A stretch of DNA of 64,000 nt from an uncultured Thermoleophilia bacterium (GTDB taxonomy: Bacteria > Actinomycetota > Thermoleophilia > Gaiellales > Gaiellaceae), in contig CAVUMS010000006.1 in assembly GCA_963742615.1 (NCBI GenBank), positions 38,877 to 102,876 on the forward strand, read 5' to 3'. Shown here piece after piece: positions 1 to 64,000 of the stretch. The position numbers and the translations under genes are program-made. Position 1 is the first letter of the stretch; the number at the start of each line of letters is the position of its first letter. The notes under the pieces are model-generated. The model made no database searches. It was not told the DNA's origin and saw only the letters and a program-made list of their open reading frames with translations.

Positions 1-1
1 C

Positions 2-1498
2 TGCTCGCGCTCGCTGACCAGCCGCTGCACGGGCGACGCGAACGCGAAGCCCGACCCGCTCCCGGACGAGCCGGGCGGCTACGACGGCTTCAACGCGCTC
101 TACGGCTCGAAGTACGTGAACCCGGCGATCACGAGCCCGTCGAGCGGGTGCGTCAACAACACGGCCGGGATGCCGATCCCGGATCCGAAGGGCAACTGCG
201 GCTTCCCGGGCTTCGACGGGATGCTCGCGACGAACACCCTCGGCTAGGTCGCGCAGATGCAGGAGAACGGCGTGCCCGTGACCTACGGCTACATCTCGGA
301 CGCGCACGACATCCACGTCCCGAACACCGGCTCGGACTCGTTCGTGTCGACCGCCGCCGGGCCGGGGCAGTTCGAGTACCAGCAGCAGCTGAAGGCGTAC
401 GACGACGCGTTCGCCGCGTTCTTCACGAACCTTCAGGCACACGGGATCGACAAGTCGAACACGCTGTTCGTGATCACCGTCGACGAGGGCGACCACTTCG
501 CCGGCGGCATCGGCTCGCCCGATCCGCAGCATCCGGGGGCGCTCGCCTACACGCACGCGAACTGCGCCGCGAACGCGCAGGGCATCCTCAACTGCCCGGC
601 GAACCAGATCGGCGAGGTCAACGCGAACCTGCAGCCGCTGACGGGACGCACCGACTTCTCGGTGCACTCGGACGACGCGCCGACCTTCTACCTCAACGGC
701 AATCCGAGGCCGAGCAGCTCGACGGTGCGGAGCCTCGAGCACCAGCTGGCGAACATGAAGCTCTCCGACCCGTACGTGAACAACGGAGCGCTTGCGCCGA
801 TCGCCGTCAACTTCGCCGACCCGGTCGAGGAGGCGACGCTGCACATGGTCAACACCGATCCGAGCCGGACGCCGACGTTCACGATGTTCGGCAACGACGA
901 CATCTTCTTCACGGCCGGCCCGACCGGCCCGTCGTGCGGAAGCAACCCGTGCGTCGCTCCGGCCTTCGCGTGGAACCACGGTGACATCCAGGAGGAGATC
1001 GGCAACACGTGGGTCGGCATCGTCGGGCCGGGCGTCGCCCCGAACGGCGTCGACGCGACGACGTGGACCGATCACACGAACCTGCGTCCGACGATCCTGG
1101 CGCTGACCGGCCTGAAGGACACTACCGCGACGACGGCGCCGTGCTCTCGCAGGCGCTGACACCGGCCGGCACGCCGTCGGCGGTGCAGTCGCAGAAGGCG
1201 ACGTTCGAGCAGCTGCAGCAGCTGTACGAGCAGCTGAACGCGCCGTTCGGGCAGTTCGGGACGGACACGCTCGCAGCGTCGACGCGAGGCATCGAGAGCA
1301 ACTTCATCGGTGACCTCACGTACCTCGTGACGGAGCGGAACATCACCAACCTGACCGGCGCAGCGGAACCAGCTGGCAGGTGAGATCCACAGTGCGCTTG
1401 CAGGCGCGGCGTTCGACGGGACGCCGATCAACCCCGTGCAGGCGGCGCTCTGGCAGGTGCGGGGGGCGAGCCTCCTGGCTCTCGCCCACAGCCTCTGA
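2..1498 (+). pseudogene. Phosphoesterase / alkaline-phosphatase-superfamily protein (AcpA/PlcN-like), 5' partial, disrupted
   Basis: Frame-2 translation from the window edge (..YDGFNALYGSKYVNPAI..GFDGMLATNTLG) hits an in-frame TAG at 245-247. It continues as ORF 257..1159 (YGYISDAHDIHVP..LFVITVDEGDHFAGG). The frame changes at 1120/1121 (ORF 1009..1383, ..YRDDGAVLSQAL..) and again near 1365, into a third frame ending TGA 1496-1498 (NQLAGEIHSALAGAAFDGTPINPVQAALWQV). Family call is from motif memory only. Confidence 0.6.
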
Positions 1499-1505
1499 CG
1501 GGCGG

Positions 1506-2222
1506 TTAGCGACGGCGCGATACGGAGGGCTGCCCCTGGGCGGCCCTCCGGAGCGCCTCCACCTCGCCGGCCTCGAGCTCGCGCCACGCGCCGGGCTCGA
1601 GCCCGGCGAGCGTCAGCGGCCCGTAGCGGCTTCTGTGCAGCGCCACGACCGGATGCCCGACCGCCTCGAGCATGCGCCGCACCTGGCGGTTCTTGCCCTC
1701 GTGGATCGTCAGCTCGAGCGTCGACGGGCCGAGCCTCACGACGCGCGCCGGCGCGGTGCGCCCGTCGGTCAGGTCGATCCCGGCGGCGAGGCGCGCGACG
1801 ACCGCGTTCGTCGGCTCGCCCTCCACCTCGGCGACGTAGACCTTGTCGACCTCGTAGCGCGGGTGGGCGAGCCGGTGCGCGAGCGAGCCGTCGTTGGTCA
1901 GGAGGAGCGCGCCCGTCGTCTCGGTGTCGAGGCGCCCGACGGGGACGACGCGCACCGGGTGCTCGACGAGCCCGACGACGGTCGGGCGGCCCTGCGGGTC
2001 GCGCGCGGTCGTGACGACGCCGGCCGGCTTGTGCAGGAGGACGTAGGCGAGCTGCTGCGGGGAGAGGGGCTTGCCGTCGAGGCGCACCTCGTCCTGCCCC
2101 TCGACGAAGGTGTTGAGCTGCCCGCGATCGCCGTTGACGGTGACGCGCCCGGCCTTGATCAGCTCGTCGGCACGCCGCCGCGAGCCCACCCCCGCCCGCG
2201 CGAGCCAGGCATTCAACCGCAT
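1506..2222 (-). CDS. rluB: 23S rRNA pseudouridine synthase, RsuA/RluB family
   Basis: Uninterrupted 238-aa ORF. S4-like N-terminus (MRLNAWLARAGVGSRRRADELIKAGRVTVNG) and synthase core (HKPAGVVTT, VGRLDTETTGALLLTNDG). Confidence 0.9.
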   Translation of the reverse strand: MRLNAWLARAGVGSRRRADELIKAGRVTVNGDRGQLNTFVEGQDEVRLDGKPLSPQQLAYVLLHKPAGVVTTARDPQGRPTVVGLVEHPVRVVPVGRLDTETTGALLLTNDGSLAHRLAHPRYEVDKVYVAEVEGEPTNAVVARLAAGIDLTDGRTAPARVVRLGPSTLELTIHEGKNRQVRRMLEAVGHPVVALHRSRYGPLTLAGLEPGAWRELEAGEVEALRRAAQGQPSVSRRR

Positions 2223-2270
2223 GCCCGAAGTCTGGCACTCGGGCCACGGCCCGCATGCCCCAAACCGGTG

Positions 2271-2813
2271 CTAGTAGAGGGCGGTCGCGAGCCGGCGGCG
2301 GTACTGGACGGTCAGCGGATGCTCGTGGCCGAGCTCGCCGAAGAGGCGCACCATCAGCTCGCGCGTCTCGTCCCGCGACTCGGGGTCGCGCTCGACGCGC
2401 TCGAGCAGCAGCCGGAACGCGCCCTCGTAGTCGCCCGCCTGCAGCAGCGGCGCGAGCTCCTCGTCCTCCACCGTCTCGGCCACGGGCGGCTTCGTGAGCT
2501 CGTCGAGAAACGCCTCGACGCCTGCCCGCGCCTGCGCACCGACGAACTCGGCGACGACGTGCCCGTTCCGGAATGCCTTCACGGCCGGGATCCCGCGGAC
2601 GTCGTACTCGAGCGCGATCTGCTGGTTGGCGTCGACGTCCACCTTCGCCAGTCGCACGCTTCGCTCCGCGGTCGCCTCTTCGAGGAGCGGTCCGAGCTGC
2701 TTGCACGGCCCGCACCACTCCGCCCAGAAGTCGACGACCACCGGCTCGGTGGCCGACCGCTCGATCACCTCGGTCTCGAACGTGGCGTCTGTGACGTCCA
2801 TCGACAACCTCAA
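2271..2813 (-). CDS. Thioredoxin-domain protein with helical C-terminal extension (YbbN/CnoX-like)
   Basis: Uninterrupted ORF with a WCGPC active site (VVVDFWAEWCGPCKQL). The probable start is MDVTD at 2801. Confidence 0.85.
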   Translation of the reverse strand: MRLSMDVTDATFETEVIERSATEPVVVDFWAEWCGPCKQLGPLLEEATAERSVRLAKVDVDANQQIALEYDVRGIPAVKAFRNGHVVAEFVGAQARAGVEAFLDELTKPPVAETVEDEELAPLLQAGDYEGAFRLLLERVERDPESRDETRELMVRLFGELGHEHPLTVQYRRRLATALY

Positions 2814-2908
2814 CGCTCGCTCGGCCCGATTCGTTCCGCGATGAGTTTGCGGTTGGCGCGCGGTCGGTATGCAGTGAACGTCACAACGAGCGAGGGGAGC
2901 AACACGGA

Positions 2909-3277
2909 ATGGGACAGCCGGTCGTGCACTTCGAGATCATCGGCAAGGATGCCGACAAGCTGCAGGGCTACTACGGCGAGCTCTTCGGCTGGACGTTCGA
3001 CGCGAACAATCCGATGCGCTACGGCACGGTCGAGCGCGAGCAGAACCTCTCGCCCGACGGCGTGGGGATCGGCGGCGGCGTGGGCACAGGCCCCGACGGC
3101 TACGAGGGTCACGTCACCTTCTACGTCGCCGTTCCCGACATCGAGGCGGCGCTCGCCAAGGCGGAGAGCCTCGGCGGCAAGCGCGTGATGGGGCCGGAGA
3201 AGGTGATGGAGTCGATCGAGATCGGCCTGTTCACCGACCCCGAGGGTCACCTGGTCGGCGTCGTCAACCCGAGCTGA
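2909..3277 (+). CDS. VOC (glyoxalase/bleomycin-resistance) family protein
   Basis: 122-aa ORF with the pattern typical of small VOC proteins: [53 protein letters not shown]. Confidence 0.8.
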
Positions 3278-4612
3278 GCGCGTACAGGCGCCACTCGCCG
3301 GGCACGCCCTTCAGCTCGGCCGCGCCGCGGTCCAAGAACTCGAGGCCGGAGCCGGCGACGAGGTCCTTGACGGTGCTCGACACGAGGACCTCGCCCGGCT
3401 CCGCCTGAGCCGCGACGCGGGCGCCGATGTGCACGGCGATCCCGCCGACCTTGTCCTCGATCACCTCGCACTCGCCGGTGTGAAGCCCCGCGCGGACCTC
3501 GATGCCGAGGTCGCGGACGCCGTCCGAGATCGCCTGCGCGCAGCGAATCGCCCGCGCGGGGCCGTCGAACGAGGCGAAGAAGCCGTCGCCGGCCGTGTCG
3601 AGCTCGCGGCCGCGATAACGCGCAAGCTGGCCGCGCACGACGACGTGGTGCCGCTCGACGAGCTCGCGCCAGCCGCGGTCGCCGAGCTCGACCGCCTTTG
3701 CCGTCGAGCCGACGATGTCGGTGAAGAGGATGGTCGCGAGCACCCGGTCGGGCTCGGAGGCATCCCAGCCTCCGCCCTCGTAGACCCCGGTGACGAAAGC
3801 CTCGAGCTCGTGCACGCAGCGAATCCGTATCGCCGTAGTACGGCATGTGCGGCCCGCCGGGAAGCTCGACGAAGCGTGCACCGGGGATCTGGTCCGGCGG
3901 TCCAGCGGGCGACCTCGATCGGCAGGTCGTCCTCGCTGCGGTGGAGCACGAGCGTGGGGACACGGATCGTCGGGAGCACGTCGCGCACGTCGATCTGCGC
4001 GTTCATCTGCTCCAGCGCGATGATCGCCCCCGGGCTCGCACTCAGGCGCTGGCGGGAGGCGTGCCACTTGACCTCTTTCTCGGTGGGCTCCCTGCCCTGG
4101 CGCTGCAGGAACTCGACCGCGGCTTCGTCCGTCCCCCAGCTCCGCGACCATTCGTCGGCGTCGCGCATGTACTCGTCGAGCGGCTGGCCGAGCGGGAAGT
4201 CGGGCGCCCACACGAAGCGCGGCATCGATCCGTAGACGACCAGCGCCGGCGTTCGTTCGGGGTACGTCGCCGCGAAGAGGATGCTCATCGGCCCGCCTTC
4301 GGAGGCTCCGACGAGCGCAGCGCGCTCCGAGCCCACTGCGTCCATCACGGCCCGGACATCGTCCATCCGCGTCTCCAGGTTCGCGATTCCCGCGACGCGG
4401 TCCGACGCGCCGGTCCCTCGCTTGTCGAAGACGATCAAGCGGCTGAAGGAGGCGATCCGCTCGAAGAACGCGGCGCGCGCGGGATCCTCCCAGATCAGGT
4501 CGACGTTCGAGACGGCACCCGGGACGTAGACGAGATCGAACGGCCCGTCGCCGACCACCTGATAGGCGATGCTGACGTCGCCGCTTCTCGCGTACCGCGT
4601 CTCGGGCTGCAC
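3264..4612 (-). pseudogene. Alpha/beta-hydrolase - class III adenylate/guanylate cyclase fusion, two frameshifts
   Basis: N-terminal hydrolase fold in ORF 3461..4612 ([22 protein letters not shown]). A short middle block ([25 protein letters not shown]) sits in ORF 3247..3963. The cyclase domain is in ORF 3264..4211 ([45 protein letters not shown]). Frame changes lie near 3900 and 3820. Confidence 0.75.
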
Positions 4613-4634
4613 GCCCGTAGTGTGTCGCGCTCGG

Positions 4635-5240
4635 CTACGCGGTGCGCTTCTCGGCGACCGCTTCGAGGCGCTCGCGGATCTCGCCCACGTCGGCGCCGAG
4701 GTCGTCGACCCGCGGCAGCGCCGCGAGCGACTCCAGGCCGAACACCCGCTCGAAGAGCGGCGTCGTGCGGTAGCGGATCGCCCCGAACTCGTTGTCGCGC
4801 CCGCCCTCGGCGATCAGCCCGCGCTCGACGAGCCCGGAGACGACGCCGTCGACGTTGACCCCGCGGATCCGCGCGATCTCCGGCCGTGACACCGGCCCGA
4901 GGTAGGCGACGATCGCGGCCGTCTCGAGCGCGGCCTGCGACAGCCCCTTCTCGGCCGGACGCTCGAAGAGGCGCGCGCACGCCTCGGCGGCGTCGGCGGA
5001 GGCGCGGAAGGCGAACCCGCCCGCGACGTGCTCGAGCACGATCCCGCTCGAGCCCTCCGCGTAGCGCTTCCAGAGCAGCTCGAGCGCGTCGCCGATCTCC
5101 TCCGCGTCGGCCTCGCAGGCCGACTGCAGCTCCTCGAGCGGGAGCGGCTGCGACGCGACCACGAGCAGCGCCTCGATGGTGCGCGCCAGCTCGGCTGACT
5201 GCGTCGTCTCGGTCGGGATCAGGCGGAGCGGACGTTCCAA
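4635..5240 (-). CDS. scpB: Segregation and condensation protein B
   Basis: Uninterrupted 201-aa ORF (IEALLVVASQPLPLEEL..GGFAFRA..LSQAALETAAIVAYLGPVSRPEIARIRGVNVDGVV). Overlaps the scpA stop by 22 nt. Confidence 0.9.
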   Translation of the reverse strand: MERPLRLIPTETTQSAELARTIEALLVVASQPLPLEELQSACEADAEEIGDALELLWKRYAEGSSGIVLEHVAGGFAFRASADAAEACARLFERPAEKGLSQAALETAAIVAYLGPVSRPEIARIRGVNVDGVVSGLVERGLIAEGGRDNEFGAIRYRTTPLFERVFGLESLAALPRVDDLGADVGEIRERLEAVAEKRTA

Positions 5241-5977
5241 GAGAGACTCCTTTCGGCATCGGCGCGGGAAATCCTTATCGGCGCGAACGGCCCGGCCTGC
5301 GCGATCGCGATCTCGTCCTGCTTGCGCAGCTCGAGCAGCGCCAGGAACGCGACGGCGACCTCCACCCTGGACAGCCCGCGGACTTCGCTGTCGAAGTCGA
5401 AGCGGCTGCGGCGGCGGAGCAGCGAGCGCCAGCGCTCGAGGAACTGCGAGACCGGCGGGAACCGAAGCGCCATGTGGGCCAGCGACGGCGCGGGCGGCTC
5501 GATCGCGAGCACGCGCAGCGCGCCGGCGAGCTTCTCCGGGTCCTGCGGCGCGAGCTTGCGCTCGACCTGCGGCGCAAGCGGCGCCGGCCCGAGCCGGAAG
5601 AACAGGTTGCGCCGCTCCTCGATCCGCCGGCGCAGGAACTGCGCGGCCTCCTTCGCCCGCCGGTACTCGGCGAGCCGGCGGGCGAGCTCCTCGGCCGCCT
5701 CCTCGGGCTCGAGCTCGGCGAGCTCTGCGTCCTCGTCGGGGAACATCGCGCGCGCCTTCAGCTCGAGCAGCGCCGAGATCAGCACGAGGAACTCGCCGCA
5801 GGCGTCGAGGTCGAGCTCGCCCTTCCGGTCGAGGTGCTCGACGAACGCGATCACCACCTCCGCGAGGTCGATCTCGCGGAGCGGCAGCTCCTCGCGCAGC
5901 ACGAGCGAGAGCAGGAGGTCGAACGGGCCCTGGAACGCGTCCAGGTCCAGCTCGAGCTCGTGGACGGAGACCGTCAC
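5219..5977 (-). CDS. scpA: Segregation and condensation protein A
   Basis: C-terminal 252 codons of ORF 5219..6874, starting at GTG 5977 (VTVSVHELELDLDAFQGPFDLLLSLVLREELPL..). The start was computed by codon count from the ORF end. Confidence 0.85.
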   Translation of the reverse strand: MTVSVHELELDLDAFQGPFDLLLSLVLREELPLREIDLAEVVIAFVEHLDRKGELDLDACGEFLVLISALLELKARAMFPDEDAELAELEPEEAAEELARRLAEYRRAKEAAQFLRRRIEERRNLFFRLGPAPLAPQVERKLAPQDPEKLAGALRVLAIEPPAPSLAHMALRFPPVSQFLERWRSLLRRRSRFDFDSEVRGLSRVEVAVAFLALLELRKQDEIAIAQAGPFAPIRISRADAERSLSWNVRSA

Positions 5978-5997
5978 CGCGCGAAACGCTATCGGCG

Positions 5998-6874
5998 CTA
6001 GCGGACGCGGCCCTTGGGGATGGCCATCGCCGGCCCCTGCTTCGGTTCCGGCCGTTTCGGCTCGCGCACGCCGCGCGCGGGGTCGCGCCGCTGCCACCAG
6101 ATGAAGAAGCCGGTCGAGCAGATGAACACGATCAGCGACACCCAGGCGTTCAGGCGCAGCCCGGCGATGTGGTGCGCCGGATCGACCCGGATGAGCTCCT
6201 CGAAGAAGCGGCCGAAGCAGTAGTAGGAGACGTAGAGCGCAAAGAGCGACGGCGGCCGCAGCTTGAAGCGCCGGTCGACCCAGATCAGGAGCCCCACCCC
6301 GGCGAAGTCCCAGATCAGCTCGTAGAGGAAGGTCGGGTGGAAGGTCGCGCGGTCGAAGTACTGGATCGGCCGGTGGCTCGGGTCGATCTTGAGCCCCCAC
6401 GGCAGCGTGGTCGGCTTGCCGAAGAGCTCCTGGTTCCACCAGTTGCCGATCCGCCCGATCCCCTGCGCGAGCAGGAGGCCCGGCGCGGCGGCGTCCATGA
6501 ACTTCGTGACCGAGTAGCCGGAGCGCCTGACGACGACGGCGCCGGCGATCGTCCCGAAGAGGATCCCGCCCCATACGCCGAGGCCGCCCTGCCAGACCTC
6601 CCAGATGCCCTTCCACTTGGGGCTCGGGACCTCGCTCCAGGAGGTGATGTCGTGGTAGAGGCGCGCGCCGACGACCCCGAAGCCGACGCCCCAGACGGCG
6701 ACGCGCGTGACGAGGTCCCAGTCGCCGCCCATCTTCACCCAGCGGCGCCCGGTCAGCCAGATGCACGCGAGGATGGCGACGAGCAGCGTGAGCCCGTACA
6801 TGTGCAGCTGCAGCGGGCCGAGGTCGACCGACGCCGCTGTGAGGCGATGGGATGTAGGCGATGAGAAGCCGCAT
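5998..6874 (-). pseudogene. lgt: Prolipoprotein diacylglyceryl transferase with one frameshift near codon 15
   Basis: ATG 6874 gives MRLLIAYIPSPHSGV. The rest continues in the frame of ORF 5998..7191 (VDLGPLQLHMYGLTLL..GGLGVWGGILFG..GRIGNWWNQELFGKPT..). The junction agcggcgtcGgtcgac at about 6829/6830 looks like one extra G. Confidence 0.85.
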
Positions 6875-7504
6875 CTAGACCCTGGTCCGGGGCAGTGAAG
6901 CAGGTCCCTCGGAGGGAACGGCGGCGAACCCGCGGACGAGCGTCCCGAGCGCGTCGCGCCAGAAAGCCTCCTCGCGACCGGCGGGCAGCAGGCCTCGGAG
7001 CTCGAGCGCCGCGAGCCCCTCGCAGAGCGCGTGGAAGGAGCAGGCGGCGTCGAACACCGTGCGCCCGCCGAGCAGTCCAGCCGTCTCGAGCCGCCCGACC
7101 TTCGCCTCGAGACCGACCCAGGCCTCCCGCGCAACCGACGGGTCGACCGGCGCGTAGCCGGGGCCCTCGAGCGTGCGCTGGACGCTGACACGGAAGAGCG
7201 ACGGATGCGAGACCGCGAAGTCGCGGAAGACGACGATGCCCGCCTCGACGAGGTCGGCCGCCGCGTCGTCCGTCGTCGGAAGCCCCTCGATGCCGATCCG
7301 CAGCAGCTCGTAGGCGCGCGCGCCGAGCGCCGTCACCAGCCCGTCCTTCGAGCCGTAGAGGCTGTAGACGGCGCGCGTGGTCGTTCCGGCCGCTTCGGCG
7401 ACGCGGCGGACGGAGAGCGCGCCGACGCCCTCCGTCTCGATCAGGCGCTCGGCCGCGTCGAGCAGGTCGTCGGCGATGCGCGGCTGATGACGGGGCCGTC
7501 CCAT
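6875..7504 (-). CDS. TetR/AcrR family transcriptional regulator
   Basis: Uninterrupted 209-aa ORF with an N-terminal HTH (LLDAAERLIETEGVGALSVRRVAEAAGTTTRAVYSLYGSKDGLV). Its stop codon abuts the lgt start. Confidence 0.85.
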   Translation of the reverse strand: MGRPRHQPRIADDLLDAAERLIETEGVGALSVRRVAEAAGTTTRAVYSLYGSKDGLVTALGARAYELLRIGIEGLPTTDDAAADLVEAGIVVFRDFAVSHPSLFRVSVQRTLEGPGYAPVDPSVAREAWVGLEAKVGRLETAGLLGGRTVFDAACSFHALCEGLAALELRGLLPAGREEAFWRDALGTLVRGFAAVPSEGPASLPRTRV

Positions 7505-7521
7505 GGGCTTGTGTAGCGTAT

Positions 7522-7539
7522 CACCGTTACGTTACAGTG
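7522..7539. promoter_or_regulatory. Imperfect 18-bp palindrome, candidate TetR operator
   Basis: caccgttacgttacagtg matches its own reverse complement at 14 of 18 positions. It lies in the 60-bp divergent spacer between the TetR gene (start 7504) and the hydrolase gene (start 7565), which is locally AT-richer. Confidence 0.35.
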
Positions 7540-7564
7540 TTGCGAAACGGACGAGGGGATCGAG

Positions 7565-8375
7565 ATGACGACGTTCTTCGGAGAGATGGCAGGCGACCTT
7601 TCAGGCTCGACGGACGCACGGCCGCCGGTCGTGCTCGTGCACGGGCTGACCTTCGACCGGGCCTCGTGGCGGCCCGCACTGGATGAGCTCGGGCGCCTCG
7701 ACCCGGGCCGGCGGGTGCTCTCGCTCGACCTGCCGGGGCACGGCGAGTCGCCGCCCCGCGACTCCTACCGGATGGCGGAGACCGTCGAGCGCGTGCACGC
7801 GGCCGTCGAGGAGGCAGGGCTCGTCGCGCCGGTGCTGATCGGTCATTCGATCGGCGCGGTGGTCGCGACGATCTACGCGACCGAGCATCCGGTCAGCGGC
7901 GTCGTGAACGTCGACCAGTCGCTCGAGGTCGAGCCGTTCGGCTCGCAGATACGGGCGCTCGCGCCCGCGTTCGCCGGCCCGCAGTTCCCGCAGGTGTGGG
8001 CGGGCTTCTGGGCGAGCATGGAGATCGACCGCCTGCCGCCCGCGGCGCAGGAGCTGCTCGAGCGGGCGACGAGCGCCCAGCTCGGAGCTCGTGCTCGGCT
8101 ACTGGGCCGACCTGCTCGAGCGCCCGGACGAGATGCTCGAGTGGGCGACGGCACGGGCTACGCGACGCTGCGCGCACGGCGGGGTGCCGTACGAGGCCGT
8201 GGTCGGGCGCAACGTCGACGCCGAGCGCGCCTGGTACGCGCGCGAGCTGGCGCACGCGGTCGTCACCGAGATGCCGGGCTGCGGGCACTTCCCCCAGCTC
8301 GCACAACCGCAGGCGTTCGCCGCGCGGATCGCGGCGACGAACGACTGGGCGCAGGCGGTCTGGAGGGCCGCGTAG
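7565..8375 (+). pseudogene. Alpha/beta hydrolase, at least one frameshift
   Basis: ORF 7565..8422 carries VVLVHGLTFDRASW..LDLPGHGES..LIGHSIGAVVA. The C-terminus continues in ORF 8091..8375 (LGYWADLLERPDE..EMPGCGHFPQLAQP). The junction ctcgGagctc at 8084/8085 looks like one extra G. Confidence 0.75.
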
Positions 8376-8378
8376 AGG

Positions 8379-8600
8379 CTAGAGCAGGATCTGCTTCGCG
8401 AGCTCGGGCGAGCAGCCCTTGAGCAGGAGCTCGATCGCGCGATGGAGGTCGATGTCCATGCGGACGGCGATCGCCGCCGCGTCGGCGGGGCCGAAGCCGG
8501 CCCGCTCGAGCTCCTCGGCCCGCCAGCGCTCGACGAGCTCTTGCTCGGTGGGGCGGGTGGTGAGGTCGGCGGTCGGCATCATCGAATCTCTTTCTTGCAC
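8379..8600 (-). CDS. Small hypothetical protein (73 aa)
   Basis: Uninterrupted ORF (..ELVERWRAEELERAGFGPADAAAIAVRMDIDLHRAIELLLKGCSPELAKQILL). No family recognised. The start could be GTG 8600 or the internal ATG-ATG pair. Confidence 0.5.
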   Translation of the reverse strand: MQERDSMMPTADLTTRPTEQELVERWRAEELERAGFGPADAAAIAVRMDIDLHRAIELLLKGCSPELAKQILL

Positions 8601-8733
8601 ATTCTGTTCGGTTAAACGACGGATGTGGTTCTCCCCACAGTGGGGGATTCGAAGGATTTACGAATCGCTAACGGTTCCTCCGCAATCCACACTTCGCTCA
8701 ACCGCAAGCAGCGGCTTTTTGGTTGACGTCGTG

Positions 8734-12063: not shown

Positions 12064-12203
12064 GTGGAGGTGGACGAACTCGGCAGTGACTCGAAGAGGC
12101 GGTGGCCATCGCGGAGGGTCAGTTTACGGAGCGGTCCTGACGGGCCCGAAGAGCCCGGTCTCAGGGCGCCTTGCAGCTGCAATCAGCCCAGAAAGGTTGA
12201 TCA

Positions 12204-12250
12204 CCCCCGTGGTAAGGAGGGGGTCGACGGTTCGAGTCCGTCATAGGCTA
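12204..12250 (+). tRNA. tRNA-Thr(GGU)-like 3' fragment (orphan anticodon arm to acceptor 3' strand); not a complete tRNA
   Basis: The anticodon arm is ccccc/gtggtaa/ggagg, with U33, anticodon GGU, A37 and one C-A mismatch. The variable loop is gggtc. The T arm gacgg/ttcgagt/ccgtc is perfect. The acceptor 3' strand is ataggct plus discriminator a. No complementary 5' acceptor strand (AGCCTAT or a G-U variant) occurs in the 100 nt upstream. Confidence 0.4.
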
Positions 12251-12333
12251 AAGCCGTCTCGACATCACCCTGGACGGCAACACCGCATGGGGCTGCCCAA
12301 GGCTCGCTCGACGCCGTCCCCACGAAGTGTCGC

Positions 12334-53632: not shown

Positions 53633-53638
53633 TCGCGC

Positions 53639-55126: not shown

Positions 55127-55145
55127 CGAACGCTCCTTTCCCCTC

Positions 55146-56241: not shown

Positions 56242-57279
56242 GAGCGCTCCTTCACGCGGTAGCCGACGGGCAGCAGCCGCAGGTCGAAGCGCTCCTGCAC
56301 CGTCCCCCAGAGCCCGCGCGGCAGGAACAGCGCGAACGGCGATCGCGATCGCGCCCAGCCCGACCAGGTACCAGATGCCCGCCGACGAGACGTACGTCTG
56401 GATCAGGAAGAGCACGATCGCACCGAGGATCGGCCCCTCGAACGTGCCGAGGCCGCCGACGAGCACCATGAAGATCATGTAGGCCGTCCAGTTGAACGCC
56501 GAAGATCGAGTCGGGCTCGAGCGACGAGATCGACAGCTGTTCGCGAGGATCACCGCCCCCGCCGCCGCCGCAGCCGACGCGCCGCGAGCACGAACAGGAC
56601 GCGCTTGCCGAGCGAGCACGCGCACGCCGAGCGACGCGGCCGCCTCCTCGTCGTCGCGGATCGCCTGCAGCGACGCGCCGAGCCGGCTGCGCAGCAGCAG
56701 GAACAGCGACCACCAGGAAGACCGCCGCGGCGCCGAGCGCCAGCCAGTAGGTGTACGCGCAGCCGCTGCGTCGGGCGTGTAGCGGAGGTTGAAGCGCGAT
56801 CAGCGACGTCCCGGTGCCGCCGCCGAGCGACGGGTCGAGCGAGACCAGGATCGCGAACGACCTCGGCGACGACCCACATCGCCGATCGCGAACTGGCGCC
56901 GCCGCGCAGCCGCAGCACGACGACGCGAGACGGGATCGAGACGAGCGCCGCCGAAGAGCGTCGCGACACCATCGCGAGGTACGGGTTGAGCCGTGGCTGC
57001 ACGAGAGCCAGACGATGCCGTACGCGCCGATCCCGATGAACGCCTGCTGGCCGACCGAGACGAGCCCGCCGTAGCCGGCGAGCGCGTTCCACATCGACCG
57101 CGAGCATCACGAGGAAGAGAGCTCGTCAGCTTCTGAGTCGCGTTCTGCGCCGAAGAGGTACCGGGACGAACGCGAGCAGCGACGATCAGCCCGGCGAGCG
57201 CCGGCCGTGAACCCGCGCCGAGACCGCGTCCAGCGCTGGACGCGCAGCGGGCCTCGGGATCGCGACGGCCTGCGGTCAT
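56238..57279 (-). pseudogene. Branched-chain-amino-acid-type ABC transporter permease (LivM-like), multiple frameshifts
   Basis: ATG 57279 overlaps the LivH-like stop. Blocks are MWNALAGYGGLVSVGQQAFIGIGAYGIVWLS (ORF 56252..57094), MWVVAEV.., YTYWLALGAAAVFLVVA and FNWTAYMIFMVLVGGLGTFEGPILGAIVLFLIQTYVSSAGIWYLVGLGAIAIAV (ORF 55399..56625). Confidence 0.75.
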
Positions 57280-58180
57280 GCCGTCACCGTCCGCGAGCGA
57301 GAGCTGCGGAGGCCGCCGGCGGCGACCGCGCGCACGACGAGCACCGCGAGGAAGACGAGGTGGCCGGCCAGCGCGAAGTACTGCGGGTCGATCTGCGCTC
57401 CGACCGTCTGGGCGACGCCGAGCACGATGCCGCCGAGCAGCGTGCCCCACAGCGAGCCGACGCCGCCGATCACGACCGCCTCGAACGCGAAGATCAGCTG
57501 CGTCGGGCCGGCGAACGGGTCGAACGTCGAGCGCATCGCGTAGGAACACGCCGGCGAGCGCCGCGGTCGCCACCGCGATCGCGGTCGCGCGCGCGTAGAC
57601 GCCGCGCGCGTCGATGCCGACCAGCTCGGCCGTGTCGGGGTCCTGCCGCCGTCGCGCGCATCTCGCGGCCCGAGCTGGGTGCGCGAGAGGAAGAGCTGCA
57701 GCCCGCCGAGCACGCAGATCGGCGACGCCGAGGATCAGCACGCCGAACGCACGGGATCGTCGATCGTGCTGGAGATCTGCCAGCTCGCGGTGCCGATCCC
57801 GCGCCGCGCGCCGAGCGAGTGCACGTCGGGCGAGAAGACGTACTCGAGCAGCAGGTTCTGCGATCACGATCGAGCAGCCCGAACGTCGTCAGCAGCGGCA
57901 CCAGCTCGCCCGCGCGCAGGCTGCGCTCGAGCATCGTCACGCTGCAGCACGTAGCCGAGCGAGCAGCATCGCCGGCAGCACGGCGACGAGCGCGAGGAAG
58001 GCCGAGACGCCGGCGTGCTCGCAGCGACGAAGCGACCAGGTACGCGCCGAGAACGGCGAGGTCGCCGTGCGCGAGGTTGATGATCCGCATCACGCCGAAC
58101 ATCAGCGACAGGCCGCACGCGAGCAGCGCGTAGACGCCGCCGAGCAGGATCCCCTGGATGACCGCGTTGACCCAGGTCAT
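57276..58180 (-). pseudogene. Branched-chain-amino-acid-type ABC transporter permease (LivH-like), multiple frameshifts
   Basis: ATG 58180 overlaps the ATPase stop (ATGA) and gives [48 protein letters not shown] (ORF 57494..59272). The C-terminal block is FDPFAGPTQLIFAFEAVVIGGVGSLWGTLLGGIVLGVAQTVGAQIDPQYFALAGHLVFLAVLVV (ORF 57276..57713). Confidence 0.8.
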
Positions 58181-58909
58181 CCGGCCGCCCCCGCCGCGCG
58201 GGCGAGCCCGAAGTACGCGCTCGGTGACCTGCTCGCGCGTGAGCGTCGCGCGCCGGCCCTCGAGCACGATGCCGGCCCTCGAGCATGCAGACGACGCGGT
58301 CGGCGACGGCGAGCGCGCGCGCGAGGTCCTGCTCGACGAGCACGATCGTCGTCCCGCGCTCGATCGAGCGTCGGCGAGCGAGCGCGTAGACGCGCCTCGA
58401 CGACGACGGGCGCGAGCCCGAGCGAGACCTCGTCGAGCAGCAGCAGACGCGGGTTCGTCATCAGCGCGCGGCCGATCGCCGTCGCCTGCTGCTCGCCGCC
58501 CGAGAGGGTCGCCGCCGCGGCGGCAGCGCAGCGGCTGCAGCAGCGGGAACGCCTCGAGCACCGCCTCGACGTCCCACGGCCCCGGCGTCGCGCCGCCGCG
58601 GCGACGAGCAGGTTCTCCTCGACGGTCAGGCCGCGGGAACAGCCGACGGCCCTCGGGCACGAGCGCGATGCCCATGCGCACGCGCTCGTGCGCGCGGCAC
58701 GCGCGTGACGTCGTCGCCGTCGAAGACGATCGCGGCCGGCGCGCGGGCCGGTGCGCGCCGGCGATCGTGCGCAGCAGCGTCGTCTTGCCGGCGCCGTTCG
58801 CGCCGACGAGCGCCAGCGTCTCGCCCTCGTCGACCTCGAGCGACACGTCGCGCACCGCCTGCAGCAGGCCGTGGCGGGCGTCGAGCGCCTCGACCGCAGC
58901 AGGCGTCAT
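58177..58909 (-). pseudogene. ABC transporter ATP-binding protein (LivF-like), multiple frameshifts
   Basis: ATG 58909 (by codon count) gives [51 protein letters not shown]. Further blocks are [30 protein letters not shown] (ORF 58177..58461), and the end ..AYFGL.. with its stop at 58177. Confidence 0.8.
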
Positions 58910-59660
58910 GCGACCGCCCGCCCGAGGTAGGCGTCGATCACGGCCGCGTCGCTCATCACCGCGCCGGGCTCGCCGTCGGCGATCACGCGGCCCTGCGTCC
59001 ATGCAGACGAGCCGCTCGACCACCTGCACGAGCACGTGGACGATGTGCTCGATCCAGACGATCGCGATGCCGCGCCCGCGAACTCCGGCGATCGTCGCGA
59101 GCAGCTCGTCCGCCTCGGCGTCGGTCAGCCCGCCGCCGATCTCGTCGAGCAGCAGCACCGACGGGCTCGGTCGCGAGCGCCCGCGCCAGCTCGAGCCGCT
59201 TGCGGTGCAGCAGCCCGAGCGTCTCGGCGCGGCGGTTCGCGAGGCCGCGCGAGGTCGCACAGCGTCGAGCACCTCGATGCGCGCGTGCGTAGACGTCGGA
59301 CCGCGGCCCGCCGGCCGCCTGCTGCCGCGCCGACGAAGACGTTCTCGAACACCGTCATGTCGCCGAACGGCCGCGGCACCTGGTGCGCGCGGCCGATGCC
59401 GAGCCGGCAGCGTCGTGCGGCGCCGCGCCGCGTGACGTCCGCGCCGTCGAGCTCGACACGCCCTGCGTCGGGGCGCAGCGCGCCCGCGAGGACGTTCAGG
59501 AGCGTCGTCTTGCCGGCGCCGTTCGGCCCGACGATGCCGACCGCCTCGCCGTGCCCGACGGCGAAGTCGACGCCGTCGAGCACCACGAGCGCGCCGAAGC
59601 GCTTGCGGATCCCGACGGCGGCGAGGATCGGCTCCGACTGTCGCGGTTCGGCGCTCAGGT
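58906..59660 (-). pseudogene. ABC transporter ATP-binding protein (LivG-like), multiple frameshifts, start unresolved
   Basis: Blocks are [87 protein letters not shown] (ORF 59125..59868) and [42 protein letters not shown] (ORF 57494..59272). No canonical start codon is visible in frame near 59650. Confidence 0.75.
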
Positions 59661-60997
59661 CGTGTACGGCTTCAGCTTCGCCGCCGATCGGGATCTTGTG
59701 GTCGTCGGAGTGCTCGCAGATCACGAAGTCGAGCTTGTACTTGCTCGTCGACCTTGACGCCACTGGCCGCCGAGGATCGGCGTCGGCACGACGTTGTACG
59801 GCACGCCGGGGCGCTTCTTCGCTCCAGTCGAGCACGCCGATCGGCGTCTCGACCTTCAGCGTCTTCATCGCGTTCGCGACCGCCTGCTTGTCCTTCGGGT
59901 TGCCGCTCGCCTTGAGCGCGGCCGCCGCGACGTCGAAGAGCGCGAGGCTCGGGCCGACCTGCTGGTTCCACTGCTTGCCGCGTCTTCGCGTGTAGCCGGC
60001 GGCCGAGCTGCTTCGAGGTGACGCCGGTCAGCGACGAGGAGTACGGCCACGTCGGGTGCCAGTAGCACGGCGCTCGCCAGGTTGTTGCCGATCGCGCCGA
60101 GCGCCGTGACCTGCGAGGGGAACAGGCCGGTCTTCGCGATCTGCGCGATCTTGATCTGCTTGGTCAGACCCTGCTGGGCCGCCTGCCGCCAGAACGTCGC
60201 GAAGTCCGGCGGGATCGGGAACGTGTTGAAGATCTGCACGTCCTCCGACTTGAACTTCGAGATCTGCGCCGAGTAGTCGTTCGTCCCGTCCTGGTAGGCG
60301 CCCGGATCGACGATCGTGTAGCCGGCCTTCTCGAGCAGCGGGCCGAGCGCCGCGCGGATCGCGTTGCCGTCGGCGTCGTTCGGCCACATCACGCCGACCT
60401 TCTTGTTCGTCGGGACCTGCGGCCACAGGTGCGTGTACGCGTTGGAGAAGTTCGCGACGCCGAAGCAGAAGTGGTAGCCGTAGCGGAACGGCGAGGCTTG
60501 GCCGGGTCCTTCGCCCCGCGCCCGAAGTACCACGCCTCCCACGGCACGACCGTCGAGATGTACGGAACGCCGGCCGCCTCGGAGGCGTCCGCCACCGGGT
60601 TGACCGTCTCCGGCGTCGACGTCGCGAGCATCAGGTCGACCTTGTCGCTGTGGATCAGGTCGCTCGCGACCTGGCGCCGCGTGCGACGGGGTCGACTGGC
60701 TGTCGCGGTTCGACGATCTGGACGTTGTAGTGCTTGCCGCCGATCGTGAGCCCCTTCGCGAGCGTCTTGCGGGCGAGGCCGAGGACGTAGCGGTCCGGCT
60801 CGCCGAAGCCCGAGGCTGGCGCCCGTGATCGGGCTCACGAAGCCGATCTTGATCGTGTTGCTCGCGTCGGCGGAGCGGGGCCGCGCCCAGATCGGCTCGG
60901 CGAAGGACCCGGCGACGACCACGCCGCCGGCGCCGACCCCTGCGCGCTTGATGAGCTCCCTCCTCGAGATCCGACGCGCTTCGAACTCGCCAGGCAT
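59655..60997 (-). pseudogene. Tat-signal periplasmic/extracellular substrate-binding protein, Leu/Ile/Val-binding-protein family, multiple frameshifts
   Basis: ATG 60997 follows gaggagg and gives MPGEFEARRISRRELIKRAGVGAGGVVVAGSFA, with a twin-arginine motif SRRELIK. Further blocks are NTIKIGFVSPITG, VASDLIHSDKVDLMLATSTPETVNPVADASEAAGVPYISTVVPWEAWYFGRGAKDPAKP, and SPFRYGYHFCFGVANFSNAYTHLWPQVPTNKKVGVMWPNDADGNAIRAALGPLLEKAGYTIVDPGAYQDGTNDYSAQISKFKSEDVQIFNTFPIPPDFATFWRQAAQQGL (ORF 59865..60542). The stop is at 59655-59657. Confidence 0.75.
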
Positions 60998-61088
60998 GTA
61001 CGACCTCCTCGGGTCGGTTAGGGGGACCAGGGCGGACGTCTTCGTGCCGGCCGACGCTACGACGGCGCTTGTCCGATTGTCAAGACAC

Positions 61089-61107
61089 TGTTCTAATAGG
61101 TGGAACA
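61089..61107. promoter_or_regulatory. Inverted repeat TGTTC-N9-GAACA, candidate IclR operator
   Basis: tgttctaataggtggaaca has 5-bp perfect arms, lies in an AT-rich patch, and ends on the A of the IclR start codon (61107). It sits in the 109-bp divergent spacer facing the SBP gene. Confidence 0.4.
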
Positions 61108-61892
61108 TGGCGGGCACGGCCTCCTACTCGCAGTCGCTCGAGCGCGGGCTCGCAATCCTCTCCGCCTTCCGATCGGGCCGCCCGACCTCGGGATCTCCGA
61201 CCTCGCCCGCGAGCTCGGGCTCGGCCGCTCGACCACCCACCGCTACGTCGCCACGCTCGCTTCGCTCGGCTACCTGCAGCAGGACCGGACGACGCGGAAG
61301 TACCGGCTCGGGCCGCGCGTGCTCGACCTCGGCTTCTCGGCGATCAACTCGATGGAGCTGCGCGAGCTCGCCGCGCCGCACCTCCAGCAGTTGAGCGACG
61401 AGACCGGCTTCACCGTGAACATGGCGATCCTCGACGGCGTCGACATCGTCTACGTCGAGCGCTGCCGGAGCTCGCGGCGTCGCCCAGCGCGAGATCGACC
61501 TCAACCTTCACGTCGGCTCGCGCATGCCGGCGTACTGCACGTCGATGGGGAAGGTGCTGCTCGCGTTCCTCGAGCCGGGCGAGCGCGAGGCGATGCTCGA
61601 CCGCTCGACGCTCGCTCGCCGCGGGCCGAACACGCTCACGACACGGAAGGCGCTACGCGCCGAGCTCGATCGCGTGCGTCACGACGGGTTCGCGATCAAC
61701 AACGAGGAGCTCGCCTACGGGCTGCGCTCGATCGCCGCGCCGGTGCGGCAGAGCGACGGAGCGGTCGCCTCGGCGGTGAACCTCGCCGTGCACAGCTCGA
61801 TGGTCTCGATGCAGGAGCTCGTCGCGCGACTCACGCCGGCGCTGCTGCAGACGGCGGCCGAGATCTCGGCGCGGACGGGCTACAGGCCCTAG
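61107..61892 (+). pseudogene. IclR family transcriptional regulator (PcaR/PobR-like by context), two frameshifts
   Basis: MAGTASYSQSLERGLAILSAF (ORF 60825..61394) is followed by the HTH block LGISDLARELGLGRSTTHRYVATLASLGYLQQD..YRLGPRVLDLGF..LAAPHLQQLSDETGFTVNMAILDGVDIVYVER (ORF 61100..61924). The effector domain is MPAYCTSMGKVLLAFL..GFAINNEELAYGLRSIAAPV (ORF 61524..61892). Frame changes lie near 61170 and 61480. Confidence 0.8.
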
Positions 61893-61893
61893 T

Positions 61894-62334
61894 TCAGCGG
61901 GCCGAGATGTACTCGGTCAGGTAGCGGACCTGGAAGCTCTGCTCCTCCGACTGCAGCCGCACCAGGTCGCCGATCGAGACCATCCCGGCGAGCTCCCCGC
62001 CGTCCGCGACGACGGGAATGTGGCGGATGCGGCGGTCGGTCATCAGCGCCATCGCCTCCTCGACGGTGGTCTCGGGCGTGATCACGACCACCGGGGCCGT
62101 CATCACGTCGCGCACCGGGGTCTCGCGCTCGGCGAGTCCCTGGACGGCGACCCGGCGCAGGTAGTCGCGCTCGGTGAAGATGCCCTCGACGTCGTTGGCA
62201 TCGTTGCCGGTGACCAGCAGTGCGCCGACGTTCGCGTCCACCATCGCCTGCACCGCCTCGAGCACGGTCGAGTCGCCGTCGATCCTGATCACGTCGCCGC
62301 CTTTCTGCTCCAGGATCTTCGAGACGGCGGCCAT
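61894..62334 (-). CDS. CBS-domain pair protein
   Basis: Uninterrupted 146-codon reading frame from MAAVSKILEQKGGDVIRIDGDSTVLEAVQAMVDANVGALLV..VRDVMTAPVVVITPETTVEEAMALMTDRRIRHIPVV, within ORF 61894..63207. The start was set by codon count. Confidence 0.8.
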   Translation of the reverse strand: MAAVSKILEQKGGDVIRIDGDSTVLEAVQAMVDANVGALLVTGNDANDVEGIFTERDYLRRVAVQGLAERETPVRDVMTAPVVVITPETTVEEAMALMTDRRIRHIPVVADGGELAGMVSIGDLVRLQSEEQSFQVRYLTEYISAR

Positions 62335-62427
62335 CCTGGAACAATTCCGGTCGGCCCAACTCGTGTCAAGTCCCACATGCGACGGGGCGTTAGGTTTCGA
62401 GCGTGAGCAGCCGTCGAGATCCTGACC

Positions 62428-63372
62428 ATGGGACGCATCGGGGTCGACCTCTACCCCGAGCAGACCGGGGTGCACCTGGCGGACGTCCGGACGTTCCGGA
62501 AGATGCTCGGCGGCAGCGCGACGAATGTCGCGGTGGCGGCTGCCCGCTACGGCCGCAGGGTGGGCGTGATCACGAAGGTGGGCGACGACCCGTTCGGGCC
62601 GTACGCCCGGAAGGCGCTTGCCGAGTTCGGCGTCGACGCCTCCAGGGTCGGCACCCACCCCACGCTGCGGACCCCCGTCGTCTTCTGCGAGATCTTCCCG
62701 CCGGACAGCTTTCCGCTGCTCTTCTACCGCGAGCCGACGGCGCCGGACATGACGCTCGAGGCGGACGAGCTCGACCTCGACGAGATCGCCTCGGTGCCGC
62801 TCTTCTGGACGACGGGCACGGGCCTCTCGGCCGAGCCGAGCCGCTCGGCGACGCTCGCCGCGCTCGCCGCCCGCGGCCGGCGGGAGATCACGATCCACGA
62901 CCTCGACTACCGGGCCGGGTTCTGGAGCTCGGAGGAGGACGCGGGCCACTGGGGACGCGAGGCGGTGGCGCTGGCGACCGTCGCGGTCGGCGGCCGTGCC
63001 GAGGCGGCGCCGCTGGTCGGCGACCGCCCGCCCGAGGACACGGCCAGGGCGCTCCTCGACCTCGGCGTCTCGCTCGCGGTGGTCAAGCTCGGCCCCGAGG
63101 GCGTGCTCGCGGCGACCCAGGACGAGCTCGTGACCGTGCCGCCGGTCGCCGTCGAGGTGGTGAACGGGCTCGGTGCCGGCGATGCGTTCGGCGGCGCGCT
63201 CTGCCACGGGCTGCTGTCCGGCTGGGAGCTCGAGCGGACGCTCCGCTTCGCCAACGCCGCCGGCGCGCTGGTCGCCTCGCGGCTCGGGTGCGCCGACGAC
63301 ATGCCGACCGAGGACGAGGTCGACGCGCTCCTGGGCGCGGTGCCGGGCACCACGGTGCCCGGCACCGGTTGA
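62428..63372 (+). CDS. iolC: 5-dehydro-2-deoxygluconokinase (PfkB family)
   Basis: Uninterrupted 314-aa ORF (MGRIGVDLYPEQTGVHLADVRTFRKMLGGSATNVAVAAARYG..VVNGLGAGDAFGGAL). Confidence 0.8.
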   Translation: MGRIGVDLYPEQTGVHLADVRTFRKMLGGSATNVAVAAARYGRRVGVITKVGDDPFGPYARKALAEFGVDASRVGTHPTLRTPVVFCEIFPPDSFPLLFYREPTAPDMTLEADELDLDEIASVPLFWTTGTGLSAEPSRSATLAALAARGRREITIHDLDYRAGFWSSEEDAGHWGREAVALATVAVGGRAEAAPLVGDRPPEDTARALLDLGVSLAVVKLGPEGVLAATQDELVTVPPVAVEVVNGLGAGDAFGGALCHGLLSGWELERTLRFANAAGALVASRLGCADDMPTEDEVDALLGAVPGTTVPGTG

Positions 63373-63376
63373 CGGC

Positions 63377-64000
63377 GTGCACGTCGGGCTCGCCGGGGCC
63401 GGGCGGATGGGAGCGTTCCACGCGCGGACGCTGCAGACGCTGGAATCGGTCGACGCGCTGACGATCGCAGACCGCGATCCGGCGACTGCCCGGCGCGTCG
63501 CCGACGACGTCGGCGCGAACGCAGCGGATTCGCCGGAGGCGCTCGTCGCGGCGGGCGTCGACGCACTCGTGATCGCGGCGCCGACACCGGTGCACGCCTC
63601 GCTCCTCCGCCTGGCGGCCGCTGCCGGCGTGCCGGCGTTCTGCGAGAAGCCCGTCGCGCTCGAGCTCGCCGACCTGGACGCGGTGATCGCCGACGTCGAG
63701 CGCGCCGGAATCCTCGTGCAGGTCGGGTTCCAGCGCCGCTTCGACGCCGGCTACCGGCGGGCGCGCGAGGCGGTCGCGGCCGGCTCGCTCGGCACGCTCC
63801 TCGTCGTCCGGGCCGCGACCCACGACCCGGCGCCGCCGCCCGAGAGCTACATCGCGCGCTCCGGCGGCATCTTTCGCGACCTCCACATCCACGACCTCGA
63901 CGCGATTCGCTTCGTCACGGGCCTCGAGATTGGACGAGGTCTACGCCGACGGCTCGGTGCGGGCGACGCCATGGTTCGAGCAGCACGGCGACGTGGACGC
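63377..64000 (+). pseudogene. Gfo/Idh/MocA oxidoreductase (inositol 2-dehydrogenase-like), 3' partial, probable frameshift near 63931
   Basis: GTG 63377 lies 5 nt after the iolC stop and gives VHVGLAGAGRMGAFHARTL..VDALVIAAPTPVHASLLRLAAAAGVPAFCEKPVAL..VQVGFQRRFDAGY..GIFRDLHIHDLDAIRFVTGLEI. The expected continuation DEVYADGSVRATPWFEQHGDVD is in the next frame. The gene runs off the window. Confidence 0.7.

Follow-up and report, generated by a model that had tools for sequence, protein, structure and literature searches.

Dense one-base frameshifts in a 64-kb Gaiellaceae contig stretch are most probably blockwise consensus errors of a long-read metagenome assembly

A stretch of 64,000 nt from an uncultured Thermoleophilia bacterium of the family Gaiellaceae (assembly GCA_963742615.1, contig CAVUMS010000006.1, positions 38,877 to 102,876 of the forward strand) was analyzed; this whole stretch is termed "the window", and all coordinates refer to it. 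An initial annotation, made from the letters and their open reading frames (ORFs), had described genes shredded by one-base frameshifts next to pristine ones, with the state changing at gene boundaries. The frameshifts are real in the sequence, but they are, with a probability of about 0.93, consensus errors of a long-read metagenome assembly that are concentrated in kilobase-scale blocks. The lesions are private to this assembly, occur blockwise, cut through genes, and carry a signature that is shared with nanopore metagenome-assembled genomes (MAGs) of the family. The pipeline was most likely of the Nanopore/Flye/Medaka type, and in the organism itself the shredded genes are almost certainly unbroken.

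The GC content of the window is 72%, and coding frames can thus be read from codon usage alone. A codon model was trained on four long clean ORFs, and a seven-state Viterbi procedure (six frames plus a non-coding state) was run along the whole window. The output comprised 320 segments and 252 same-strand frame switches. Twenty-five of these switches matched the stop codon of the upstream frame and were removed as gene junctions, leaving 227 frameshifts (167 net +1 and 60 net -1). About 38 of 57-58 genes were disrupted, which agrees with the earlier tally of about 37 of 58 loci. In the gene for the family-5 solute-binding protein (SBP; 20015-21558), 12 frame segments and hence 11 switches were counted, where at least 11 had been reported. 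Junctions that had been resolved to the base were located again at 1121/1122, ca. 6833, and 42145, and the clean status of the dnaE body, the STAND ORF, the 37.3-42.0 kb region, rluB, trx, scpAB, and the TetR, CBS, and iolC genes was upheld.

Coding segments were joined over the Viterbi frame switches to yield "stitched" translations. The stitched SBP covered positions 2-362 of the 368 in Pfam SBP_bac_5 (333 bits), and full-length Pfam matches were also obtained to Amidase, Creatininase, ABC_tran, ResIII, and PLDc_2. When compared with more than 100 intact SBPs (511-522 aa), the stitched SBP was 80-89% identical over 95-100% of its length; no same-species copy (95% or higher identity) was found in this search. 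The codon-usage signal in the disrupted genes was strong enough to follow every frame, and the stitched translations read as normal proteins. The coding information apart from the frameshifts is intact. As had been claimed, in-frame stops are rare: the stitched translations contain a single in-gene stop (TAG 245-247), plus one junction stop.

The events are not distributed as a uniform Poisson process, as the initial annotation had suspected. The index of dispersion was 2.9 in 1-kb bins (p = 2e-13) and 4.9 in 2-kb bins (p = 4e-18), and event-free intervals reached 3.8-5.2 kb, compared to a mean spacing of ca. 150 nt in dense stretches. Five dense blocks were delimited by the Viterbi procedure (12596-21292, 22245-27468, 30442-33566, 43414-44152, and 47919-61475), and their densities were nearly equal, at 6.3-8.1 detected events/kb with mean spacings of 130-161 nt. 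A weaker patch was present in the M1 peptidase gene (35187-36981). Outside of the dense blocks and this patch, the density was 0-0.5 events/kb. The large dense blocks hold 13-16 genes each, on both strands, and only about ten state changes occur in the 64 kb.

Several relatives were used for comparison. The protein encoded by the dnaE body (8734-12063, minus strand) is 93% identical to those of loci L001 and L002 and 90% identical to that of L003. The former two are from nanopore MAGs of the Microflora Danica (MFD) catalogue labelled Thermoleophilia (L001 is MFD00991.bin.1.29). L003 and a further locus, L082, are both from SMAG_U15814, a Gaiellaceae MAG assembled from short reads with MEGAHIT; its contig DATIOD010000049.1 (113,594 nt) is syntenic with window positions 1-12160, 15130-16945, and 26026-51698. 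From the dnaE identities, the window belongs to a Gaiellaceae-like actinobacterium, whose species is missing from the species-representative genomes that were searched. The histidine kinase at 40357-41994 has 100% protein identity to its counterpart in contig_71525 of ENA ERZ25039575 (L081). No other contig with an identical kinase was found. L081 spans window positions 31789-48425 and differs at 0.6-1.5% of bases in blocks that are clean in both; it thus represents the same species as the window, from another strain or sample. With these sequences as references, the blocks and the genes within them are as follows.

1-12088: low-density block, ca. 0.5 frameshifts/kb, with rluB, trx, glyoxalase, scpAB, lgt, TetR, and the dnaE body.
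1122 (a deletion), 1362, 3815, 3895, 6833, and ca. 8063-8212: isolated one-base lesions, from the Viterbi output and alignment to L003.
8737-12110, minus strand: dnaE, with a 3.35-kb body devoid of frameshifts and a 1-nt insertion at ca. 12087-12089 (codon 7/8).
12089-27468: dense block (Viterbi 12596-21292 and 22245-27468), 6.9-7.3 detected frameshifts/kb, with about 13 genes on both strands: PLD/ResIII helicase, AstE-like, an opp-type ABC importer with the family-5 SBP, GntR, PanE-like, amidase, creatininase, SDR, and M20 (by Pfam on stitched translations).
27235-30446: clean block, made up of a 2-kb island absent from L082 and the 3' 1155 nt of the gene for the NAD-dependent glutamate dehydrogenase (GDH).
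29292-34128, minus strand: NAD-GDH, a single gene that is clean at 29292-30446, dense at 30447-33567, and clean at 33568-34128.
35187-36981, minus strand: mini dense block in the M1 peptidase gene, with 7 insertions private to the window when compared to L081.
36982-43397: clean block, with the TPR protein, pxpA/B/C, the PAS-GAF histidine kinase, the response-regulator/cyclase gene (one insertion, at 42145), and the 3' 399 nt of the MetE-like gene.
38139, 38741, and 39429: gene junctions, not frameshifts.
43398-44053, minus strand: mini dense block in the MetE-like gene; none of its 5 window-private indels occurs in L081 or L082.
44054-47915, minus strand: clean block of 3.86 kb, with the STAND/adenylate-cyclase ORF (44124-47471) and the 3' 432 nt of pobA.
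47916-61475: dense block, 6.3 detected events/kb, with about 16 genes, including pobA, pcaC/D/B/G/H, CoA-transferase, ALDH, Zn-ADH, a branched-chain ABC importer, and IclR.
61476-64000: clean or low-density block, with the IclR 3' end, CBS, iolC, and the start of an oxidoreductase gene.

The claim that the state changes at gene boundaries did not hold, as transitions lie inside the GDH, pobA, MetE-like, and IclR genes. GDH is the key counter-example to gene selectivity. In the short-read MAG it is one intact ORF of 1599 aa, which aligns collinearly to window positions 29292-34128. No indel separates the two at 29292-30446, whereas 13 one-base insertions and no deletions were found at 30447-31549; 25 frameshifts were counted by the Viterbi procedure at 30442-33566, and the 5' 561 nt (from 33568 to the start codon) are clean again. 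The clean ORF at 29277-30440, for which a search for exact protein matches gave no hit, belongs to the 3' part of GDH and is not a gene of its own. Around the STAND ORF, the clean stretch spans 44053-47916 and covers the 3'-terminal 432 nt of pobA; clean 3' tails are likewise present in the MetE-like gene (399 nt) and IclR (last 408 nt). The joint probability of the clean tails is ca. 3e-10, assuming that switching occurs exactly at gene boundaries and that shredded genes carry one event per 150 nt. The dnaE gene was excluded from this calculation and rejected as a within-gene transition; its single insertion is merely 20 nt from the ATG.

Three or four block edges do fall near gene ends (12089, 27200, 35187, and 44053). 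These edges are also ca. 35-180 nt from structural breakpoints relative to the sister genomes, namely the PLD-helicase island, a 2-kb MazF/RHH/HYR island, the M1 peptidase insert, and a dodecin-gene indel. Structural breakpoints are usually intergenic, and a gene-boundary effect can thus be mimicked. The gene-boundary pattern is not real; kilobase-scale blocks cut through genes, and the disrupted or intact state is not a property of gene units, as it would be for genuine pseudogenes. GC content was rejected as the cause of the clean and dense states (the SBP region, at 67% GC, is dense, and the STAND gene, at 73-74%, is clean). Inter-species divergence is alike in clean and dense blocks (ca. 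88-90% identity to L003), which rules out that dense blocks merely hold fast-evolving genes.

The relatives also show to which assembly the lesions belong. The genes pcaHGBDC, pobA, STAND, MetE-like, response regulator, histidine kinase, TPR, pxpABC, GDH, and M20 are intact in SMAG_U15814, and no compared gene is broken there. Gaps between the window and this MAG that are not multiples of three are nearly all one-base insertions: 28 insertions and 3 deletions at 15130-16945 (L003), and ca. 20 or more insertions and 2 one-base deletions at 26026-27235 (L082). A three-way MAFFT alignment of the window, L081, and L082 (16.6 kb) was used to polarize the indels. Twenty-seven one-base insertions and 4 deletions were private to the window, in the GDH, M1 peptidase, response-regulator, MetE-like, and pobA genes, and 14 of the 27 insertions were in GDH at 31820-33331. 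None of the 27 was present in L081 over the 16.6 kb. Conversely, 25 insertions and 22 deletions were private to L081; they were mostly at 45231-48299, chiefly within STAND, a gene that has no lesion in the window. Two assemblies of one species therefore have different genes shredded. Assembly error predicts lesions that are confined to a single assembly and missing from independent assemblies of the taxon or its sister. Together with the technology control described below, the comparisons with the short-read sister MAG and the same-species contig independently place the lesions in the assembly.

L081 has damage of its own. Over window positions 44054-47915, it carries ca. 45 private indels and 63 private substitutions/kb. 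Positions 1-3528 of the contig (compared to window positions 44421-48339) repeat the following stretch in inverted orientation, at 78-84% identity and with numerous gaps; this segment is a fold-back (hairpin) chimera of raw-read quality at the contig end, and L081 looks like a low-support contig. At 33038 and 33169, the window and L081 share an extra base, although the local sequence differs; this hints at context-dependent (systematic) miscalling. A modification motif was considered for these positions and set aside, as the local sequences differ and there are two sites only. L001, the locus of the closest relative, is itself shredded at 70-6079, in the same opp/SBP operon as the window (14797-21401), with similar non-homopolymer G/C insertions; this is either a coincidence or a region that these populations make hard to assemble.

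The error spectrum was then compiled. About 85-90% of the errors are one-base insertions, and the insertion:deletion ratios were 28:3 at 15130-16945, 27:4 in the three-way alignment, and 13:0 in GDH at 30447-31549. Among the base-resolved window-private insertions, the inserted base was G in 13 cases, C in 9, T in 3, and A in 1 (85% G/C). Typically, an extra G precedes a C, or an extra C stands between two Gs. The dense GDH block carries ca. 8 indels/kb and ca. 19 window-private substitutions/kb, the latter having no third-position bias (13:7:14 over the codon positions); in clean blocks, there are 4-5 window-private substitutions/kb, and these are third-position biased. The substitutions in the bad block of L081 are likewise even over the codon positions (55:55:58), i.e. 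they have the same error-like pattern.

The initial annotation had also offered real, recent mass pseudogenization under relaxed selection, perhaps with an indel-biased mutator; here, accessory and catabolic genes would have been struck, and a mutator would have to be insertion-biased. Most disrupted genes serve uptake or catabolism, housekeeping genes are for the greater part clean, and the raised substitutions without third-position bias in a dense block would also suit genes released from selection. This account is nonetheless close to refuted, and we regard it as highly improbable. Bacterial pseudogene decay is deletion-biased and dominated by substitutions. A spectrum of ca. 8 indels/kb to ca. 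19 substitutions/kb, with 85-90% one-base insertions, is the opposite: there are too few substitutions, and the spectrum of natural pseudogenes, with deletions no rarer than insertions, mixed sizes, nonsense mutations, and a great excess of substitutions over indels, was not seen. Nor was the expected loss of codon bias and protein similarity found, as codon usage and full-length domain matches are kept and there is one premature stop. The clean/dense/clean structure of GDH and the clean 3' parts of pobA, MetE-like, and IclR argue against it as well, as do the absence of the 27 insertions from the same-species contig, the intact state of the compared genes in the sister MAG, and the occurrence of the same signature, at other places, in other nanopore MAGs but never in short-read MAGs.

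Programmed recoding, in which ribosomal frameshifting or transcriptional slippage would restore the frames in vivo, has nothing in its favor beyond the fact that +1 shifts exist. More than 227 sites would have to be recoded, with heterogeneous contexts, no common slippery motif, and A and T runs almost absent, and the orthologs of relatives are in frame at the same positions. Its probability is negligible.

Uncorrected indels from long-read, 454, or Ion data had been the favored explanation, which is right in its essentials as far as long-read consensus indels are concerned. The error is, however, not of the homopolymer type. It had been reported that each resolved indel lay next to an identical G or C; in fact, 24 of 26 base-resolved insertions have no adjacent identical base and thus are not homopolymer extensions. 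The entire window has only 39 runs of five or more identical bases, compared to more than 227 events, and A and T runs are almost absent. Errors are therefore not concentrated in homopolymers as they would be for that subtype of nanopore, 454, or Ion artefact. A version in which homopolymer-type indels were removed by patchy short-read or hybrid polishing, with clean blocks marking the places that had short reads, would account for two states and for the uniform density within dense blocks, as polished and unpolished sequence would give. Only 2 of 26 insertions touch an identical base, and this version also has to contend with a GC content that does not separate clean from dense blocks and with nanopore-only MAGs of the family that have the same patches in the absence of short-read polishing. 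It is considered unlikely.

A technology control was carried out by applying the same Viterbi procedure to 80 dnaE loci of the family (43 MFD nanopore and 37 short-read-style). The median density of +1 events was 0.21 per kb in the nanopore loci and 0.09 per kb in the short-read-style loci (Mann-Whitney p = 1.2e-5). More than 0.6 +1 events/kb were detected in 6 of the 43 nanopore loci and in none of the 37 short-read-style loci, the maximum among the latter being 0.47; these have a junction-level background only. Dense patches on the kilobase scale were present in nanopore loci L047 (201-2083), L001 (70-6079), L029 (17939-23276), and L056 (17551-20205). The signature is thus present in nanopore and not in short-read relatives, as assembly error predicts. 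The +1 density of the window (2.8 events/kb) is higher than the maximum among the 80 comparison loci (1.9). Only Nanopore reads went into the MFD MAGs, which were built with metaFlye and a single round of Medaka; the MFD authors acknowledge Nanopore-associated errors in lower-coverage MAGs (PMC12313526). For near-finished R10.4 genomes, ca. 40-fold coverage has been quoted (PMC9262707).

Under the favored account, the contig would be a patchwork of well-supported segments with a correct consensus and poorly supported segments of 0.7-15 kb. The latter are probably either low-depth or strain-specific path segments or segments in which the reads of two co-occurring strains were merged. They would retain ca. 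0.7-1.5% spurious single bases, overwhelmingly G/C insertions. As each spurious base shifts the frame, genes in bad segments look shredded and genes in good segments look pristine. Segment edges would fall where read support changes, in many cases where strains differ in structure, and such differences tend to lie between genes; gene selectivity is imitated in this way. Two technical models fit the bad segments. In the first, little-supported path segments (low-depth or strain-specific graph edges) would keep a near-raw consensus, and the two-state density and the block edges near structural breakpoints fit this model, as does the low-support look of L081 with its fold-back chimera. In the second, the reads of two strains would be merged, and the consensus would keep both alleles of some single-nucleotide polymorphisms (SNPs). 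Both may act together.

Evidence for strain mixing, which had been listed earlier as a collapsed mixture of strains or paralogs, was sought in a "both-alleles" signature, i.e. sites where the inserted base and its neighbor are the two alleles seen among relatives. With L081 and L082 as references, both alleles were kept at 8 of 18 non-homopolymer insertions against a background of 15% (p = 0.002); with L001-L003, the value was 7 of 18 against 21% (p = 0.065). The raw-like errors of L081 had no such enrichment (5 of 18 vs. 24%). Together with the breakpoints near block edges, this lends some support to strain mixing as a contributing cause.

As the main driver of the artefact, a mixed-strain consensus is possible but is the less probable option. 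By this route, a likelihood or neural consensus procedure for which deletions are cheaper than substitutions would emit both SNP alleles in tandem, giving +1 shifts, and clean blocks would be those where the strains are near-identical. It accounts for the insertion bias and the non-homopolymer context, the combined both-alleles count is 15 of 36 non-homopolymer insertions (background 15-21%), and block edges lie near structural breakpoints. True strain divergence is also about three times higher in the dense GDH block, where there are 23 L081-private, third-position-biased substitutions/kb compared to 7/kb in clean blocks. On the other hand, SNPs between strains are 52% transitions and 28% C<->G, whereas the insertions (85% G/C) mostly imply C<->G pairs; about half of them are at sites that are invariant in all references; and the window-private substitutions of the dense block are without the third-position bias that alleles from a second strain should have. 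The codon phase of the insertion positions (7, 4, and 3 events at the three codon junctions) had no power to discriminate between SNP-derived and random insertions.

Several points weigh against blockwise consensus error as the explanation, or against parts of it. The platform and pipeline, and the cause of the blocks (low depth vs. strain mixing), are what we infer. Classical nanopore error consists of homopolymer deletions, which the 24 of 26 insertions without an identical neighbor do not resemble, and allele doubling cannot explain all insertions, given 85% G/C against 52% transitions. Housekeeping genes are over-represented in the clean set, as are catabolic genes in the dense set, a split that on the surface fits relaxed selection. 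For large data sets, the MFD study applied a Flye read-coverage cut-off of 8 (PMC12313526); if the contig came from this pipeline, a very low depth would need explaining. Finally, L081 is a different strain (1-4% divergence) and not a re-assembly of the same genome. Because this is the sole same-species comparison, room is left for the extra bases being real, the product of an insertion-biased mutational process acting on contiguous kilobase-scale tracts and not on genes. Error-prone repair or replication tracts and recently recombined or damaged DNA segments are candidates. Such a process would have to place ca. 7 one-base G/C insertions/kb over 0.7-15 kb, too recently for substitutions to have accrued, and we give it very little credence.

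Some local features of the window are described here. The insert of ca. 2 kb at 27235-29292 is absent from L082, where M20 and GDH adjoin. The segment 27249-28802, previously taken as a single clean gene, is clean but holds three genes, and the insert has in addition ca. 500 nt without coding signal. The genes are as follows.

27249-27572, minus strand: MazF/PemK toxin, full-length.
27556-28152: ORF with an RHH antitoxin domain.
28035-28802: HYR-domain ORF.

A gap of 2.7 kb (window 12126-14797) is occupied by the PLD-like nuclease/ResIII-helicase gene (12248-14805, minus strand). The gap measures only 0.7 kb in L001 and has another filling in L003; the region is a variable, defence-like island adjoining dnaE. 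At its edge is a tRNA-like element (12185-12250, plus strand) with a perfect T-arm and a truncated D-arm. With 18 bits against the Rfam tRNA model, it falls short of the gathering score (29); it may represent the relic of an attachment site, or a tRNA that the same errors have damaged. ARAGORN detected no tRNA or tmRNA gene in the window or in L001, L002, L003, L004, and L005, and no RNA family was found in an Rfam scan of the window at the gathering threshold. The M1 peptidase gene (35010-37336) is present in the window and L081 and absent from L082. The dodecin gene (334 nt) is located between STAND and MetE-like in L082 and is absent from the window (at 44108) and L081. The codon at TAG 245-247 is TAC (Tyr) in L001 and L002, a single third-position C-to-G difference, and GAA in L003. 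It lies in a low-error block and represents either an error of substitution or a genuine nonsense allele. A cyclase-receiver fusion (41983-42971, plus strand) and the zinc-ribbon-cyclase-AAA_16-TPR STAND protein (44124-47471, minus strand) are both encoded near the PAS-GAF histidine kinase. This arrangement of the two genes with adenylate/guanylate-cyclase domains is kept in L082.

These results serve as a quality warning. About two-thirds of the gene calls from such a contig are broken, which would lower estimates of completeness and coding density, pollute protein databases with fragments, and give rise to false pseudogenes and falsely lost pathways (here pca/pob, GDH, and two ABC importers). 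Because the insertions are non-homopolymer and occur in blocks, homopolymer-aware polishing would not remove them and an assumption of uniform error would not predict them. In genomes of at least 70% GC, a codon-usage Viterbi procedure places such errors to within ca. 25 nt in the absence of a reference. If strain mixing does contribute, the error map is also a crude map of differences between co-occurring strains.

Among known systems, the window is closest to nanopore-only MAGs (metaFlye plus Medaka, as in the MFD catalogue), in which gene calls are broken by one-base indels confined to some MAGs and some regions; MFD MAGs of this family, including the loci of the two closest relatives, have the same +1-biased, kilobase-patchy signature. 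Nanopore error of the textbook kind is a miscalled homopolymer length, in most cases a deletion, and the window differs in having non-homopolymer G/C insertions at up to ca. 1%. Frameshift-type errors have been tied to lower coverage (PMC12313526; PMC9262707). Collapsed-strain consensus artefacts are alike in the block scale of recombination or graph-edge segments, in edges near structural differences, and in the keeping of both alleles at variable sites; this likeness is statistical and partial, and such artefacts usually appear as chimeric SNP patterns or fragmentation and not as dense +1 insertions. Mycobacterium leprae and recent host-restricted pathogens also have many interrupted genes beside intact ones, preferentially in catabolism and transport, and the window resembles them superficially. 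Real pseudogenes have more deletions than insertions, lesions of varied size, nonsense mutations, and IS elements, their codon bias has decayed, and the boundaries are those of gene units, whereas the window has one-base insertions of uniform density that run across gene boundaries and are private to one assembly.

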